DNA of 64,000 nucleotides, from assembly GCF_055900595.2 (NCBI RefSeq), contig NZ_CM148325.1; one strand, 5' to 3'. The notes beneath the pieces are model-generated. The model searched no databases and was not told the origin of the DNA. It saw only the letters and a list, made by a program, of their open reading frames with translations. Every line of letters begins with the position of its first letter. Within the stretch, counting starts at the first letter, position 1. The position numbers were made by a program, and so were the translations under genes. This document shows, one piece after another, positions 1,342 through 37,976 of the stretch.

Positions 1342-4300
1342 AACGTGTTCTCCGGTTGCGTTGAGGTTGCGCAAAGCCAGCGCGTAATGTGTTGCGCACA
1401 AGCCTGAACGTGGGGGGCTTCCATCATGATTTGCCAGTGGCTGGCTTCAATCACAGCGTCGTCGGCGTTGTTTATCCAGCCCTGCCACTCGGTTTCTGCT
1501 GGCGTCCAGCGCGCGGGTCTCCCGGCGGCATACACCATGAGACAGGGGACCGGAACGCTTTCGCCCGGCGTATGCTCAGTCAGTAAACGCAGCAGATGCT
1601 CGATGTTGTCGAGCCACGTTTCTGCCGCTTGCAGCGTCAGGTTTTGCGACACCATACCGACCGTTTTAGCGAGGCTGATAAAGTCGGCAAGCTGGCTGTC
1701 GGGCGTCTGATGGTCGAAATGTTCGGGCAGTGCCAGAGGCGTTTGTCCTTCGGCTAACAGGCGCAGCAGGGCCGCCCGGTTTTCGCAACAGAAATCCTGT
1801 CGGCACACGGGATCGATTAACACCATCCGAACCTGCTTGCCTTTGGCGTACAGGCGCTGTGCGGCGCCCGCCGCAAGAAACGCGCCATACGACCAACCCG
1901 CCAGCACATAAGGGCCGTGAGGCTGCTGACGACGGATGCACCCGACATACTCATCGATCATCTGGTCGAGCGTGGCAAAGTGCTGCGGCGATTTTGCTTG
2001 CAGGCCGAAAACGCGCCTGTTCAACGCGTTAGCGAGCGGCAGCCAGGCGCTGATATCGCCGTCTGAAGCGTGGAAGACAAACAGGGTTTCCTCACCGTCG
2101 CCCTGGCAAAGGGGTATCGGGTTGTCCTCTCCTGACGTAGCCGCCTGTAGATGGGCGCAGAAGTCGCTCAGCGTCGAATGGTTGAACAGATCCTGAAGGT
2201 TAGCCCTGGCAATCCCTCTCCGGTTTAGCTGCGCGACCATCCTTGTCGCCATCAGGCTGTCGCCGCCCAGTTCGAAAAAGTCGTGATGCCTTGCCACGGG
2301 GCGAGACAGCAGCGATTGCCAGAGTTCAGCCACCTGTTTTTCCAGCGCCGAATTCCCCCCGGCAACTGGCGTGGGTTTGGCTGGCTCAGTCGGCGCATCA
2401 GACGGGGCATGCAGCGGCGTAAATAACGCTTCTCTTTGCCGGATCTGTAAAATGGGCAGACCGGTGCCAAAGCGCTGCTGTAAATAGCGGCTCACGGCTT
2501 TTTTATCCGGGCGATTTACGCCAGGCGAACGCGCTACCAGCAGATGCTGGCGCAGCGGCGACGATTCCTGCGCGGGCCACGCCAGCTCGTTTGCAAACCC
2601 GGCCTGAACGAGAACCTCCTGCCATGCGGAGCGGGTGAGCATCGGTTTCTCATCCCGGCGGCGGAAATCGCGGTATCCGCTTAATCCCTCAATAAAGCCC
2701 ACGCTCGCCAGCTGGAATACGCTGTTTCGCTCCGTCGCTTCAACGATCAGCAAACGTCCGCCGGCTTTCAGCAACAGTTTTAATCTGCGCAACGTCTGGA
2801 CGACATGGCTGGCGTCGTGGAGCACATTGACGGCAACGATCAGGTCGTAACCCGCCTCCGGGTGGGCGGTGAAATCCAGCGGCTGGTTGATGTCGAACAA
2901 GGCATAAGACACCTGCGATTCATCATGGAAACGGGCTCTGGCGTCATTGAGGAACTGCGCGGAGACGTCCGTGAAGTGGTACGACTGCCGCGTGTTCCGC
3001 GTGGCCTTCAGCACCGGCGCGGTAGTGGCTGCGGTTCCGGCGCCAACCTCCAGAATCCGTTCTGCGCTGCACAAGGCGGCAATCTGCGCGGTATAGCGAT
3101 TCAGACAGGCGCTGGCGGGGTTGTCGCGATACAGCGCGTCGGTAACGCGATGCTGCTCGTTGAACAGCAATTCCAGCGGAGAACACTGCCCGGAGAAGAG
3201 GGCGTCGTGCCGGGCGATGCAGGTTTCCAGATACTGCGCCAGCGCCTGGCTCCATTGGCTTTGCGGGCACGCTTCCTGAGGCTCAGGAATCTCGCTGAGC
3301 GGAATACGGCAGCGCCAGCTTTCACCTTCGCGGATTAACCACTCTCTTTCCGTCAGACACTGTAGCCACTGGCGCAGCAGACGCTGGTGAGACGCTTGCG
3401 CGGACAGCGCCTGTACTACTGCGCTAAAGCGATGGGCGATCTCCGGCGTGGTAAACAGGCCGTGACGATTTAGCGTAGCCGCGATCCCCTGTAGCGCACG
3501 CGCCTCCAGCCAGCGCCAGGTCGCCTCCAGCTCATCAAGCTGCGCCTGCTCAGGCAACGGCAGCGCCAGTTGGGTAAGTTCGTGCTCATCAGGCATCGCC
3601 GCTGATGGCGACGGATCGTCGGCCATCACGATATCCAGCGTCAACGCGCCCTGTTCGGTTATTTCCGCTCTGGCCTGCCGGATGCCGGGGTATTCGAGCG
3701 TCGCCTGCTCAATATCCCGCAGGTCGTAGTCCGCCTGCGCGTTCAGCGGCCAGCGTCGGCGGGGAATGTGCCCGGCGATGCCGCTGGCGAGAGTCTTCAG
3801 GCTTTCAGGGGCGGCGATGACGGCTTGCAGGATGGCGCAATAGTCATTAAACATCGCCTCGGCAGCGCCGGGTTCCAGCACGTTGTCCATGCAGTACCAG
3901 CTAAACATCAACTCGCCGTCGCTCTCCATGACCTGATGATCCAGCCAGACCTGCGGCGTTTGCGTGAATACATAGCAGGGTTCGCCGAACAGATGGCTCA
4001 TCGCCTGATCGATAGTCATGCCTTCCAGCGTCATCCCCAGCATACTGGTAAACACTACCGGCATCAGCGGTTGACGTTGTGATCCGCGCAGGCGGCCCAG
4101 CTCACGGATCACCTCAACACCGTTCATTTCACTGTGCGCCATGTTTTGCCAGAGGCGCTGTTGGGTCTGTTGCATCTGCTCTTGCAACGTCACCGGCGCT
4201 GAGAAGTTAAAATCAACCAGCGTGACGGAGGTAAAATCACCAATCAACTGGTTGATTTGCGGATGGATCGGCTGGCGATTGAAGAACGTCAGGTTCAGCG

Positions 4301-20143: not shown

Positions 20144-21932
20144 TCCTGCGGATAACCTGGCCTGGCGCGTCATCTGGCGCCAGCTTATCTCCAGCGTTGG
20201 CAGTCAGGCCAGGATGCTGCGACGCAGTATGCTGGCGCTGTTGCTGGCGGCATTCATGCAGGGGATCGCCTTTGCCTGTCTTTATCCGATCATTGACGCG
20301 CTGTTACGGGGAGACGCGCCGCAACTTCTTAACTGGGCTATGGCCTTCAGCGTCGCCGCAATTGTGACGCTGGTGCTACGCTGGTATGGCCTGGGCTTTG
20401 AATACCGTGGTCATCTGGCGCAGGCTACCCATGAGTTGCGCCTGCGACTTGGCGAGCAGTTACGCCGCGTGCCGCTGGAGAAGCTCCAGCGCGGCAGGGC
20501 GGGTGAAATGAACGCCTTGCTGCTGGGCAGCGTGGATGAAAACCTCAATTATGTTATTGCGATAGCCAATATTTTGCTGCTCACCATTGTCACGCCGCTG
20601 ACGGCGTCGCTGGCGACATTGTGGATAGACTGGCGGCTGGGGCTGGTGATGTTGCTGATCTTCCCTCTGCTGGTGCCGTTTTATTACTGGCGCCGCCCGG
20701 CGATGCGGCGACAAATGCAGACGCTGGGGGAAGCGCACCAGCGTCTGAGCGGCGATATCGTTGAATTTGCTCAGGGGATGATGGTATTGCGCACCTGCGG
20801 CAGCGATGCCGATAAAAGCCGGGCGCTGCTGGCGCATTTCAATGCGCTGGAAAACTTACAGACCCGCACTCACCGTCAGGGCGCTGGCGCAACGATGCTG
20901 ATCGCCAGCGTCGTGGAGTTGGGCCTACAGGTGGTGGTGTTATCCGGGATCGTCTGGGTAGTGACGGGCACTCTGAACCTCGCCTTTTTGATTGCCGCCG
21001 TCGCGATGATTATGCGCTTCGCAGAACCGATGGCGATGTTTATCAGCTACACCTCGGTTGTGGAACTGATCGCCAGCGCCCTGCAACGGATTGAGCAGTT
21101 TATGGCGATAGCACCGCTTCCCGTCGCAGAGCAAAGCGAGATGCCGGAACGTTACGATATCCGCTTTGACAACGTCAGCTATCGCTACGAAGAAGGTGAC
21201 GGCCACGCGCTTAATCATGTTTCTTTGACGTTCCCGGCAGCCAGTATGAGCGCGCTGGTGGGTGCCTCCGGCGCAGGCAAAACTACGGTCACCAAACTGT
21301 TAATGCGCTATGCCGATCCGCAGCAAGGGCAGATTTCTATTGGCGGCGTCGATATTCGCCGCCTGACGCCGGAACAGCTCAATAGCCTGATTTCTGTTGT
21401 TTTCCAGGATGTCTGGCTGTTTGATGACACGCTGCTGGCGAATATCCGTATCGCGCGCCCACAGGCGACGCGGCAGGAGGTAGAAGAGGCCGCCCGCGCG
21501 GCGCAGTGCCTTGAGTTTATTTCCCGTCTTCCGCAAGGCTGGCTGACGCCAATGGGAGAGATGGGCGGCCAGCTATCGGGCGGCGAGCGCCAGCGGATTT
21601 CCATTGCCAGAGCGTTATTGAAAAACGCGCCGGTCGTCATTCTCGATGAACCGACTGCCGCGCTGGATATTGAAAGCGAGCTGGCGGTGCAAAAAGCGAT
21701 CGATAACCTGGTTCACAACCGGACGGTGATTATCATCGCTCACCGTTTATCCACCATCGCCGGGGCCGGAAACATTCTGGTGATGGAAGAGGGACAGGTG
21801 GTTGAGCAGGGTACTCATGCGCAATTGCTCTCACATCATGGACGTTATCAGGCGCTGTGGCAGGCGCAAATGGCCGCGCGCGTGTGGCGCGACGACGGGG
21901 GTTCCGCGTCTGGAGAGTGGGTGCATGAGTGA
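20130..21932 (+). CDS. ybtQ: Yersiniabactin ABC transporter, fused permease/ATPase
   Basis: Likely start MKDNNPADN at 20130, overlapping the ybtP stop; Walker A GASGAGKTT, signature LSGGERQR. Confidence 0.9.
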   Translation: MKDNNPADNLAWRVIWRQLISSVGSQARMLRRSMLALLLAAFMQGIAFACLYPIIDALLRGDAPQLLNWAMAFSVAAIVTLVLRWYGLGFEYRGHLAQATHELRLRLGEQLRRVPLEKLQRGRAGEMNALLLGSVDENLNYVIAIANILLLTIVTPLTASLATLWIDWRLGLVMLLIFPLLVPFYYWRRPAMRRQMQTLGEAHQRLSGDIVEFAQGMMVLRTCGSDADKSRALLAHFNALENLQTRTHRQGAGATMLIASVVELGLQVVVLSGIVWVVTGTLNLAFLIAAVAMIMRFAEPMAMFISYTSVVELIASALQRIEQFMAIAPLPVAEQSEMPERYDIRFDNVSYRYEEGDGHALNHVSLTFPAASMSALVGASGAGKTTVTKLLMRYADPQQGQISIGGVDIRRLTPEQLNSLISVVFQDVWLFDDTLLANIRIARPQATRQEVEEAARAAQCLEFISRLPQGWLTPMGEMGGQLSGGERQRISIARALLKNAPVVILDEPTAALDIESELAVQKAIDNLVHNRTVIIIAHRLSTIAGAGNILVMEEGQVVEQGTHAQLLSHHGRYQALWQAQMAARVWRDDGGSASGEWVHE

Positions 21933-34092: not shown

Positions 34093-34944
34093 TTAACCCG
34101 CGTAAGCTGCCAGCATTTCCTGCGCCGCCAGTTTACCCAACGCATTCGCTGAGAAAGGACTGTCGCCGGTGAGAAGTTTACGGTCCTTATGTACTCGCCC
34201 GGTGATGTCGTCATTAATGATGTTCATGCCCATTTTCTTCAGTTCTTCGCCGAAGTACCAGTTGAGATGACCCGGCATATAGCCTATCTCTGGCGTTTGT
34301 TTGTCAGCGGCGTCTGGGAATGCACAAATGGAATAACCATTCAGTGGGTTATCGCCGTGGCGAAGCGCCAGAAAAGCCGCCGGGCCGTGGCAAAGGGAGA
34401 TAACAAAACGGTCATTTTTGATTGCCCACTGTAAAGCAGCAGCCACGTCCTGGCTTTCTGGTAAACCAATAAGTGCGCCATGACCACCAGGAACAAAGAT
34501 TGCTGCATATTCGCTATCAGCGTTGAGGCTGGCGACAACATCCGCGAGTTTCTTCGGATTGCGGAACAACGATTTATGCTGCTCAAAGAATGGCATTACT
34601 TTTTCATCTTTGTGCGGCATAGCCCAGTATTCAAACTTGGTCATCAGACCGGAAATGGTCGCCACTTCGAATTCGAAACCTGCAGCATGGAGATGATACA
34701 ACGGCAGCAACGTTTCAATCGGATGGTTACCAGTCGAGAACAGTTTTCCGTTATCGGTCGGCAAATAACGTTCGTCCGCGGCGATCACCAGAATTTTATG
34801 CTTACCGCGATACGGTTTTGGATAGTCCACGCCATCAAGATCAGAGACGGGACTGGTATATTGGCTAAGCGAATATTCTGAAGGGAAGAATGCATTATCT
34901 TCAGCAATATCGACCTGCGGATTTTTACTTGTTTGAACAGTCAT
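34093..34944 (-). CDS. hchA: Hsp31 glyoxalase III / protein deglycase (DJ-1/PfpI family)
   Basis: 283-aa ORF; DJ-1/PfpI-family fold including the conserved SLCHGPAAF segment. Confidence 0.9.
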   Translation of the reverse strand: MTVQTSKNPQVDIAEDNAFFPSEYSLSQYTSPVSDLDGVDYPKPYRGKHKILVIAADERYLPTDNGKLFSTGNHPIETLLPLYHLHAAGFEFEVATISGLMTKFEYWAMPHKDEKVMPFFEQHKSLFRNPKKLADVVASLNADSEYAAIFVPGGHGALIGLPESQDVAAALQWAIKNDRFVISLCHGPAAFLALRHGDNPLNGYSICAFPDAADKQTPEIGYMPGHLNWYFGEELKKMGMNIINDDITGRVHKDRKLLTGDSPFSANALGKLAAQEMLAAYAG

Positions 34945-35307
34945 AGTGTATTCCTTATTGTTGCTTAGTTAGGGTAGTCACTATATTTGCGACTGAGCTG
35001 GTCGCTATTTTTAACCAGGCTGGAAAATTGAGTCAATATATCGAAAGCGGTAGTCGGCGGGTGTAAGTATGTAATGATGATGCTGCACTGGTGTTGAATA
35101 TTATTCACGCCAAATTTTCCTTATTGAGCAACGTCGTCGCAAGTGGCCTCAATGATTTTAGACCATTATCAGAGGTACGGGGCGGCGGGGAGAGATTTAG
35201 TGCTGTGGAATATTGTGGTGCTGATGAATATTTATATCCTGGATTGGTAGAGAAAAAGCTTATTTCATGCACTATTTTTGCAAATATTTCTATATGGGAA
35301 GCGTGTT

Positions 35308-35316
35308 TGTTACGGG
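35308..35316. repeat. IS1 target-site duplication, left copy (tgttacggg)
   Basis: The 9 bp immediately left of IS1 are identical to the 9 bp immediately right of it (36085-36093). Confidence 0.85.
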
Positions 35317-35371
35317 GGTGATGCTGCCAACTTACTGATTTAGTGTATGATGGTGTTTTTGAGGTGCTCCA

Positions 35372-35647
35372 GTGGCTTCTGTTTCTATCAGCTGTCCCTC
35401 CTGTTCAGCTACTGACGGGGTGGTGCGTAACGGCAAAAGCACCGCCGGACATCAGCGCTATCTCTGCTCTCACTGCCGTAAAACATGGCAACTGCAGTTC
35501 ACTTACACCGCTTCTCAACCCGGTACGCACCAGAAAATCATTGATATGGCCATGAATGGCGTTGGATGCCGGGCAACTGCCCGCATTATGGGCGTTGGCC
35601 TCAACACGATTTTACGTCACTTAAAAAACTCAGGCCGCAGTCGGTAA
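35372..35647 (+). CDS. insA: IS1 InsA
   Basis: 91-aa [46 protein letters not shown]... identical in character to IS1 InsA. Confidence 0.9.
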
Positions 35648-36069
35648 CCTCGCGCATACAGCCGGGCAGTGACGTCATCGTCTGCGCGGAAATGGACGAA
35701 CAGTGGGGCTATGTCGGGGCTAAATCGCGCCAGCGCTGGCTGTTTTACGCGTATGACAGGCTCCGGAAGACGGTTGTTGCGCACGTATTCGGTGAACGCA
35801 CTATGGCGACGCTGGGGCGTCTTATGAGCCTGCTGTCACCCTTTGACGTGGTGATATGGATGACGGATGGCTGGCCGCTGTATGAATCCCGCCTGAAGGG
35901 AAAGCTGCACGTAATCAGCAAGCGATATACGCAGCGAATTGAGCGGCATAACCTGAATCTGAGGCAGCACCTGGCACGGCTGGGACGGAAGTCGCTGTCG
36001 TTCTCAAAATCGGTGGAGCTGCATGACAAAGTCATCGGGCATTATCTGAACATAAAACACTATCAATAA
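35566..36069 (+). CDS. insB: IS1 InsB reading frame (expressed as InsAB transposase by -1 frameshift)
   Basis: 167-aa ORF overlapping the insA 3-prime end in the -1 frame, the standard IS1 organisation. Confidence 0.85.
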
Positions 36070-36084
36070 GTTGGAGTCATTACC

Positions 36085-36093
36085 TGTTACGGG
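36085..36093. repeat. IS1 target-site duplication, right copy (tgttacggg)
   Basis: Identical to 35308-35316. Confidence 0.85.
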
Positions 36094-36313
36094 TTAATTC
36101 ATCAGAATGTGCATTTGGGGTGTTGGCTGGAAGAGTCGCTGGTAGATGTTATTGTGCCAGCAGGGGCAGGGTAAGGTACTGTATCGATATGCTTTGGCAA
36201 TTGCATGTGCCGCAGATGGAGATGAAATGCCAATAAAAAAGCCTGAGTTCGATGAGGGACGAACTCAGGCTAGTGTTAAGTTTTACAGTAACACGCCGCA
36301 GCGCGTTGGCTGA

Positions 36314-37429
36314 TTAGAACTGGTAGACGATACCAACTGCAAACTGGTCATCAGCTGCTGCGCCAGTAATGGCGGCGTCATCTTTATCCAGCATGTTGAA
36401 TTTGTATGCAGTATAAACGTTCATGTTCTTATTAAAGTAGTACCAGGTACCAACTTCAATGTAGTTCACACGGTCAGCGTCAACATATCTATGTCCAGGT
36501 ACCCCTTTGATATCTTTACCTTTAGAGTACACATAACCTAAGGACGGACGCAGACCAAAGTCGAATTGATACTGAACAACCGCTTCAAAGTTCTGGGTTT
36601 CATTGATAAGTTGATCACGCATTATTGTATTGCCTTCTCGATCGGCAACACCTGTATCAATAGAACCCGGAGTCATATTACGAGTTTCGCCGTACATTAC
36701 AGCTGCGTAGACATTGTTCGCGTCATACTTTGCAGCCAACGACCACAGTTCAGCATTTGAACCGTTTCCATCGGCAACTTGATCGTTGGTGCGATCAGAT
36801 TTGCTATATGCACCAACGATACCAAAACCATTGATGTTATAGTCTACAGACAACGCATAGCCGTCACCATTTTGTTTCTTAGTGCTACGGTTGCTGTTTT
36901 TGCCTTGGTACTGAATCGCAAAATCAAGACCATCAACCAGGCCAAAGAAATCATAGTTACGGTAGGTTGCAACACCGTTGGTACGACCATTCATGAAGTT
37001 GTCAGCGGAAGCCCAGGAATCGCCACCCCATTCAACTAACATATCGGTATAAGCTGCGGCATCATAAGCAACACCGTAGTTACGGCCATAGTCAAATGAT
37101 CCTAACTCGTTATATTTCAAACCGGCGAAGGTTAAACGGGTTTTTTCCTGGTTTTCACCTTCGGGCTTGCTGGCGTCGAGGTTGTATTCAAACTGACCAA
37201 AACCAGTCAGTTCGCTGGTGATTTGGGTTTCACCTTTAACACCGAAACGAGCATAGGAGGTATCTTCGTTTTCGCTGTTATTATCATCAGTATTTGACCA
37301 GATGCGTTCGCCAACCATCTTGCCGTAGAAATCAACTTTATTGCCATCTTTATTATAAATTTCAGCCGCATTTGCTGCGCCAGCAACTAATAACGCCGGG
37401 ACCAGCATTGCCAGAACTTTTCTTTTCAT
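36314..37429 (-). CDS. yedS: Outer membrane general porin (OmpC/OmpF/PhoE family), apparently intact
   Basis: Track ORF 36314..37459; likely start [21 protein letters not shown] (signal peptide) at 37429; C-terminal ...GIVYQF typical of general porins. Confidence 0.8.
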
Positions 37430-37976
37430 TATGTATTCCCTTGTGATTATAATCTTCATGAATATATCAATAAGTGCCGTTATCCAAAAAAAAGCACATT
37501 TGGATACTATTCTATGAAGTTCATTTTATTTTAAGGATTACATGTAACAAATGTATTTAAAAGATTTCAAAATGTTTCTAATCTATTTAATATAATTCGG
37601 GATTATGAATTCTGAATATAAACATTCATGAATATTATAAATGCATATCAATAAGTTATGAGTTGAGCAGAAAGATAGGGGGTATCAATGATTGTTGCGC
37701 TAAACACCTGGTGTGATCACGCGCACATTAATGAAGGAATAAAAAAAGCCGGCATCATGCCGGCCCCAAAAATATAAACAAGACGATAAAAGGCTAATAA
37801 CGTAAGCATCATGACACAGAATAATAAAAAGGTATAATTGTAATCAGTGCTAATATATTGATTAAATGAATTAATAAAGCCGATATCAAAGATAAATAAA
37901 ATCGCTCAAAACGATTTTTCCTGTATTCACTGCCGTTGCGCAAAAATTATCTATTTGTTCAAAAAATGAGTGAGTC

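Follow-up and report, generated by a model that had tools for sequence, protein, structure and literature searches.

An IS1A copy between hchA and a yedS-like porin gene: probably a simple, strain-private and near-neutral transposition

The question raised by this locus is whether an insertion sequence lodged between hchA, which encodes the glyoxalase III/Hsp31 protein, and a yedS-like porin gene is a mere occupant of non-coding DNA or has altered the expression of its neighbors. We analyzed the 64-kb stretch of DNA that contains it (hereafter the window) and compared the locus with those of other E. coli strains. The explanation that we consider probable is a simple transposition of an IS1A-type element into a permissive spacer of low GC content, private to this strain and near-neutral in its effects.

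Direct reading of positions 34800-36700 together with a repeat search delineates a complete IS1 of 768 bp at 35317-36084 (+ strand). It is bounded by imperfect terminal inverted repeats of 23 bp which start with GGTRATG and are 78% complementary (GGTGATGCTGCCAACTTACTGAT / ATCAATAAGTTGGAGTCATTACC); as an inverted-repeat pair they comprise IRL on the hchA-proximal side (35317-35339, +) and IRR on the porin-proximal side (36062-36084, +). Between them insA (35372-35647, +) encodes a 91-aa protein with full-length Zn-ribbon and HTH domains (PF03811 and PF12759), and is followed in the -1 frame by insB' (35566-36069, +), whose product covers the entire DDE_Tnp_IS1 profile (PF03400, positions 1-131 of 131). 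The A6C slippery site at their junction (TTAAAAAAC, 35621-35629, +) is where a programmed -1 frameshift is predicted to yield the 232-aa InsAB' transposase. Consensus matching further detected a promoter-like site, CTGCCA-16-TATGAT, within IRL (35324-35351, +), which reads into insA and away from hchA and corresponds to what we take to be the position of the IS1 pIRL promoter. The element is identical at 768 of 768 positions to the IS1 of strain B-JRPT-4119 (NZ_CP106756.1), an unrelated genome, and for that identical copy RefSeq records a programmed frameshift and the label 'IS1-like element IS1A family transposase'. With every sequence feature intact, the copy in the window is apparently transposition-competent.

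The element is bracketed by a perfect 9-bp duplication, TGTTACGGG, with its left copy at 35308-35316 and its right copy at 36085-36093 (start-to-start spacing of 777 bp), as seen by direct reading, the repeat search and a count of 9-mers. The same 9-mer has one further copy in the window, at 20302, with 0.31 matches expected per window, and the chance of an exact 9-bp repeat in the register that brackets IS1 is about 4^-9. In coordinates and repeats alike, these observations match exactly the original prediction of a complete 768-bp IS1 with an intact 9-bp repeat on both sides.

The original prediction had also proposed a comparison with strains lacking the insertion. We removed IS1 and one copy of the duplication in silico, and searched the resulting 2,600-bp reconstruction against the complete RefSeq E. 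coli genomes. It matched EC931 and B771 at 100% identity, each as one uninterrupted piece, 1217KP, whose bit score was slightly lower, at 100.0% and again as one uninterrupted piece, and two further strains at 99.9%. All five of these genomes, with flanks 99.9-100% identical to those of the window, are free of the insertion, and the empty site in such near-identical strains bears a single TGTTACGGG; the uninterrupted matches therefore give a direct view of the pre-insertion allele. The target is likewise present once, at the same position of the spacer, in F1022 and in K-12; the latter has a yedS pseudogene at the porin position and a spacer of 591 bp with a single TGTTACGGA at the corresponding place.

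These data also bear on whether the arrangement might be something other than a simple insertion: an error of assembly, a composite transposon of which IS1 is one arm, or a scar left by a rearrangement through IS1. Rearrangements of this kind are seen at the locus: in strain EH10-18-47 the IS1 lacks a duplication and both the porin gene and the rseX small RNA gene have been lost, and a 41-kb deletion in E. coli B ends at hchA (PMC3032704). In the window, however, the two copies of the duplication agree perfectly, the DNA on either side is colinear with the uninterrupted locus of other strains at 100% identity, and no second IS1 copy or IS1 fragment was found within the 64 kb. An origin by artefact or rearrangement is consequently extremely unlikely, and the complete element, intact duplication and colinear flanks bear out the earlier reading of the site as a simple transposition and speak against a rearrangement junction. 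On a larger scale, the gene order of the window follows that of B771, from the yersiniabactin island through tRNA-Asn, mtfA, yodB, zinT, msrQP, hiuH, hprRS and hchA, and continues with the porin gene, rseX, drpB, yedJ, dcm and vsr on to the fli operons.

The exact insertion is absent from all 5,426 complete RefSeq E. coli genomes, in which it would be expected to give a single-piece top match at 100%; within that collection the insertion is hence private to its source strain. The perfect duplication, the undiverged element and this strain-private state are together compatible with a recent event. The suggestion that the transposition was fairly recent is thus plausible, though the closest genomes, at about 99.5% identity over 25 kb, are too distant to fix its date.

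Both flanking genes are intact, as judged from their open reading frames, Pfam matches and the annotation of relatives. hchA (34093-34944, - strand) encodes 283 aa, and the yedS-like porin gene (36314-37429, - strand) encodes 371 aa with a full Porin_1 domain. IS1 lies 372 nt from the ATG of hchA (34944), on its upstream side, and 229 nt from the stop codon of the porin gene (36314), on its downstream side, in agreement with the roughly 370 and 230 bp initially proposed. The porin locus is 100% identical to that of strains in which the protein is annotated as WP_000824355.1; in several other strains the gene is frameshifted, truncated or interrupted by IS1, and in K-12 it is a pseudogene. Upstream of the porin gene lies the small RNA gene rseX (37741-37830, - strand; Rfam RF01401, 95 bits), in the very AT-rich spacer between porin gene and drpB (GC 0.25-0.35).

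The hchA-porin spacer itself is 592 bp long and has a GC content of 0.434, against 0.528 for the window, and its 80-bp segment of lowest GC content (0.30, at 35220-35300) has the insertion at its edge. IS1 prefers AT-rich DNA as its target, and the location of the insertion fits this preference. In K-12 no features are annotated in the hchA-yedS spacer, and no Rfam families were detected in the interrupted spacer of the window. The insertion breaks no gene, annotated feature or known RNA.

With regard to the porin gene, folding and a terminator scan identify a textbook intrinsic terminator at 36240-36271 (- strand). Of the 12 base pairs in its stem 7 are GC, its loop spans 8 nt, and UUUUUUAUU, the U-run, comes after the stem. 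Its local fold has an energy of -35.4 kcal/mol, with a z-score of -6.26 relative to shuffled sequences. The structure begins 43 bp past the stop codon of the porin gene, and about 155 bp separate its end from IS1. With so strong a terminator intervening, porin transcripts should stop short of the element and porin termination should be unaffected by it, which speaks against the proposed effect of the insertion on yedS termination.

On the hchA side, the best sigma-70-like site, TTGACT-18-AAAAAT (35007-35036, - strand), is intact between IS1 and the gene. It can be read as TTGACT-17/18-TAAAAA/AAAAAT at 35036-35007, and no other sigma-70-like site on the hchA strand reaches 9/12. A good -10 element (TATAGT, 34985-34980) likewise lies between IS1 and hchA. 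All these promoter-like sites are consensus matches no more than about 92 bp from the ATG; IS1 is situated about 280 bp further upstream. In a permissive scan of the hchA strand nothing that scored 9/12 or better spanned the junction of IRL and flank, and hence no hybrid promoter faces hchA at the left end of IS1. Consensus matches, rather than mapped promoters, thus suggest that the hchA promoter was left intact. The supplements of three genome-wide studies of transcription start sites or 3' ends contain no usable hchA entry. We also considered as a candidate hchA promoter site the RpoS SELEX peak designated 'rseX > hchA' (PMC5493296), and rejected it as it maps, by our own conversion of the older coordinates, beside rseX and the start of the porin gene.

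The sequence of events that we favor would then be as follows. An intact IS1 of the IS1A type would have entered the low-GC spacer between hchA and the porin gene by simple transposition, duplicating its target, and would have come to rest past the porin terminator and well upstream of the hchA-proximal promoter-like elements, with its insA promoter directed away from hchA. With this placement and direction, IS1 most probably has little or no consequence, and would be a near-neutral passenger insertion that presumably leaves expression unchanged.

The principal alternative is that the insertion is regulatory, with IS1 breaking or displacing a silencing region (for example, an H-NS nucleation site at 35220-35300), or adding bent or IHF-bound DNA, and thereby changing hchA expression at a distance. 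hchA is reported to be RpoS-dependent and silenced by H-NS, and IS elements such as IS1 and IS5 inserted several hundred base pairs upstream can activate silenced promoters or operons, as in the cases of bgl and flhDC. In the neighborhood of hchA, rseX has also been reported as H-NS-regulated (PMC8313858). As the hchA promoter-like sites are known from consensus matches, this background makes a long-range effect on hchA conceivable, and the position of IS1 upstream of the gene, beside the most AT-rich part of the spacer, would be compatible with it. However, AT-richness is only moderate across the entire spacer, the H-NS high-affinity motif occurs in it twice against an expectation of 0.74, which we count as no enrichment, and no outward or hybrid promoter faces hchA. 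The support for a long-range effect from the sequence is weak, and we regard a regulatory role as unlikely.

Other strains offer an independent perspective on this issue. We took a census by querying with the spacer carrying IS1 in both orientations and then reading the junctions, with the proviso that such a chimeric query joins only same-strand pieces; '+' denotes the window's own orientation, with insA pointing away from hchA. This recovered another nine independent IS1 insertions in this spacer of 592 bp, making ten with that of the window. Every one of the ten has a different position, between 21 and 494 bp from the hchA ATG, and nine of them show a perfect 9-bp duplication. Their orientations are without bias (four '+', including the window, and six '-'), and six of the ten fall within about 100 bp of each other near the segment with a GC content of 0.30.

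Closest to hchA, at 21 bp from its ATG, is the '-' insertion of strain 2e (ATTGTTGCT, 34957-34965). The adjacent 9-mer (TAGTTAGGG, 34966-34974, '+') was the target of an independent event in the 55989/O104:H4 clade (at least 18 genomes); in 55989 itself the IS1 (2508-3275 of the retrieved locus) is 30 bp upstream of the ATG, and the O104:H4 outbreak genomes share this arrangement. Here the element is downstream of all the promoter-like sites, so that hchA has probably been severed from its native promoter. Further upstream are the insertions of M2 (GTGGTGCTG, 35215-35223, '+'), 27992 (GCTGATGAA, 35220-35228, '-') and RM9088 (CCCGGATTG, about 35238-35246, '-'). That of B-JRPT-4119 (GGAAGTGTG, about 35297-35305, '+') is only 11 bp from the site in the window. 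In EH10-18-47 the '-' insertion, with a junction near 35297 (IS1 at 954-1721 of its locus), has TCTATATGG on one side and CACTGCCGT on the other, and on the right it is joined to DNA near drpB, an arrangement suggestive of an adjacent deletion mediated by IS1. On the far side of the window's element are the events of 2020S05-235 (GGGCGGGGT, about 36163-36171, '-') and F1022 (GTGCCGCAG, 36206-36214, '-'). The IS1 of F1022 (NZ_OY754357.1, 4423-5190 of its locus) has three nucleotide differences and is placed about 120 bp nearer the porin gene than that of the window and in the opposite orientation, in flanks that are 100% identical over 2.6 kb apart from a gap of 777 bp. Two near-identical alleles have therefore gained IS1 independently. 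Outside the spacer, EC6622 carries an IS1 (301-1068 of its locus) in the first codons of hchA, at about 34919-34927, with an 8-bp duplication, GATTTTTA, instead of a 9-bp one.

The clustering of six events near the most AT-rich segment is what might be expected if a silencing region resided there. It could even be proposed that the IS1 of the window and the cluster in other strains mark an upstream silencer of hchA, and that insertion relieves H-NS repression and turns on Hsp31/glyoxalase III, constituting a recurring IS-based switch; we consider this very doubtful. In 2e and the 55989/O104:H4 clade IS1 sits 21-30 bp from the ATG, and in other strains inside hchA itself, a pattern that points to a tolerated loss of hchA expression rather than to selection for its activation.

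The number of events also raises the possibility that the spacer is a preferred or selected target of IS1, and reflects parallel evolution acting on the expression of hchA or the porin gene. By our own calculation uniform placement would put an IS1 into the spacer of about 7 genomes, and about 26-30 genomes have one; ten events do leave some room for selection. However, 18-22 of these genomes belong to a single clade, 55989/O104:H4, the orientations are balanced, and the range of distances from the ATG is such that the expected effects on hchA would be very different from one event to another.

As controls, we placed the same IS1 in silico in the zinT-yodB and yedP-yodD spacers of the window, both likewise non-essential, and repeated the census in one orientation; counts of configurations were inferred from match spans, with junctions read for part of them. 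For the hchA-porin spacer, 44 genomes with IS1 nearby were found in the '+' orientation, representing at least 17 configurations, and 14 in the '-' orientation, with 13 configurations as a minimum. The controls returned 7 genomes with at most 7 configurations for zinT-yodB, and 13 genomes with 7 configurations at most for yedP-yodD. The enrichment of the hchA-porin spacer over the controls is thus about two-fold at most, on small counts uncorrected for phylogeny. In strain MLI105 a real IS1 lies almost exactly at the arbitrary control point 28583/28584 in zinT-yodB, recovered as a single-piece match, which illustrates how often IS1 lands in low-GC spacers. Since the controls too have been hit independently, recurrent insertion of IS1 appears to be normal for low-GC, non-essential spacers, an observation that also weighs against a regulatory role of the insertion. 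Taken as a whole, an adaptive hotspot is in our estimate very improbable.

Elsewhere in the window, positions 1-25993 are occupied by the yersiniabactin high-pathogenicity island (ybtU, irp1, irp2, ybtA, ybtPQXS and an integrase), adjoined by tRNA-Asn at 26155-26230. The list of open reading frames gave the island integrase the appearance of being truncated; its frame is open over 421 codons and has the same ATA start that is annotated in B771, and hence we do not regard it as a lesion. At about 58850-61040, colinearity with B771 places emrE, ybcL and an HTH regulator after an integrase fragment, the whole adjoining fliE. We take emrE and ybcL to be DLP12-prophage genes which in K-12 are elsewhere on the chromosome, and the segment accordingly resembles a small remnant of a prophage in another location.

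Both the type of element and the type of event are already known. Outside annotation the insertion has very little importance, being a copy, specific to one strain, of the IS most familiar in E. coli, in non-coding DNA. It can be used as a strain or lineage marker, and could in principle give rise to subsequent deletions or inversions in the hchA-porin-fli region, like those seen in EH10-18-47 and E. coli B. Were hchA expression to prove changed, this would add one more case to the well-known class of IS-mediated promoter effects.

The known system closest to the element is IS1 itself, in the form of the IS1A and IS1R isoforms of E. coli and Shigella, with which it has in common the length, the terminal repeats, insA and insB' with the A6C -1 frameshift site, and the 9-bp target duplication; the element itself shows no differences from these, and the insertion site alone is new. 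The activation of bgl and flhDC offers a second comparison, in that there, too, an IS is found a few hundred base pairs upstream of a stress- or condition-regulated promoter that is reportedly silenced by H-NS. Unlike in those cases, the hchA-facing end of the IS1 in the window has no outward or hybrid promoter, and the spacer is of only moderate AT content with no enrichment of H-NS motif matches. A third comparison is with the spacer insertions of other strains, which involve the same element family in the same 592 bp, mostly with perfect 9-bp duplications. Among these, the IS1 copies of 2e and the 55989/O104:H4 clade part hchA from all of its promoter-like sites, whereas that of the window leaves those sites intact.
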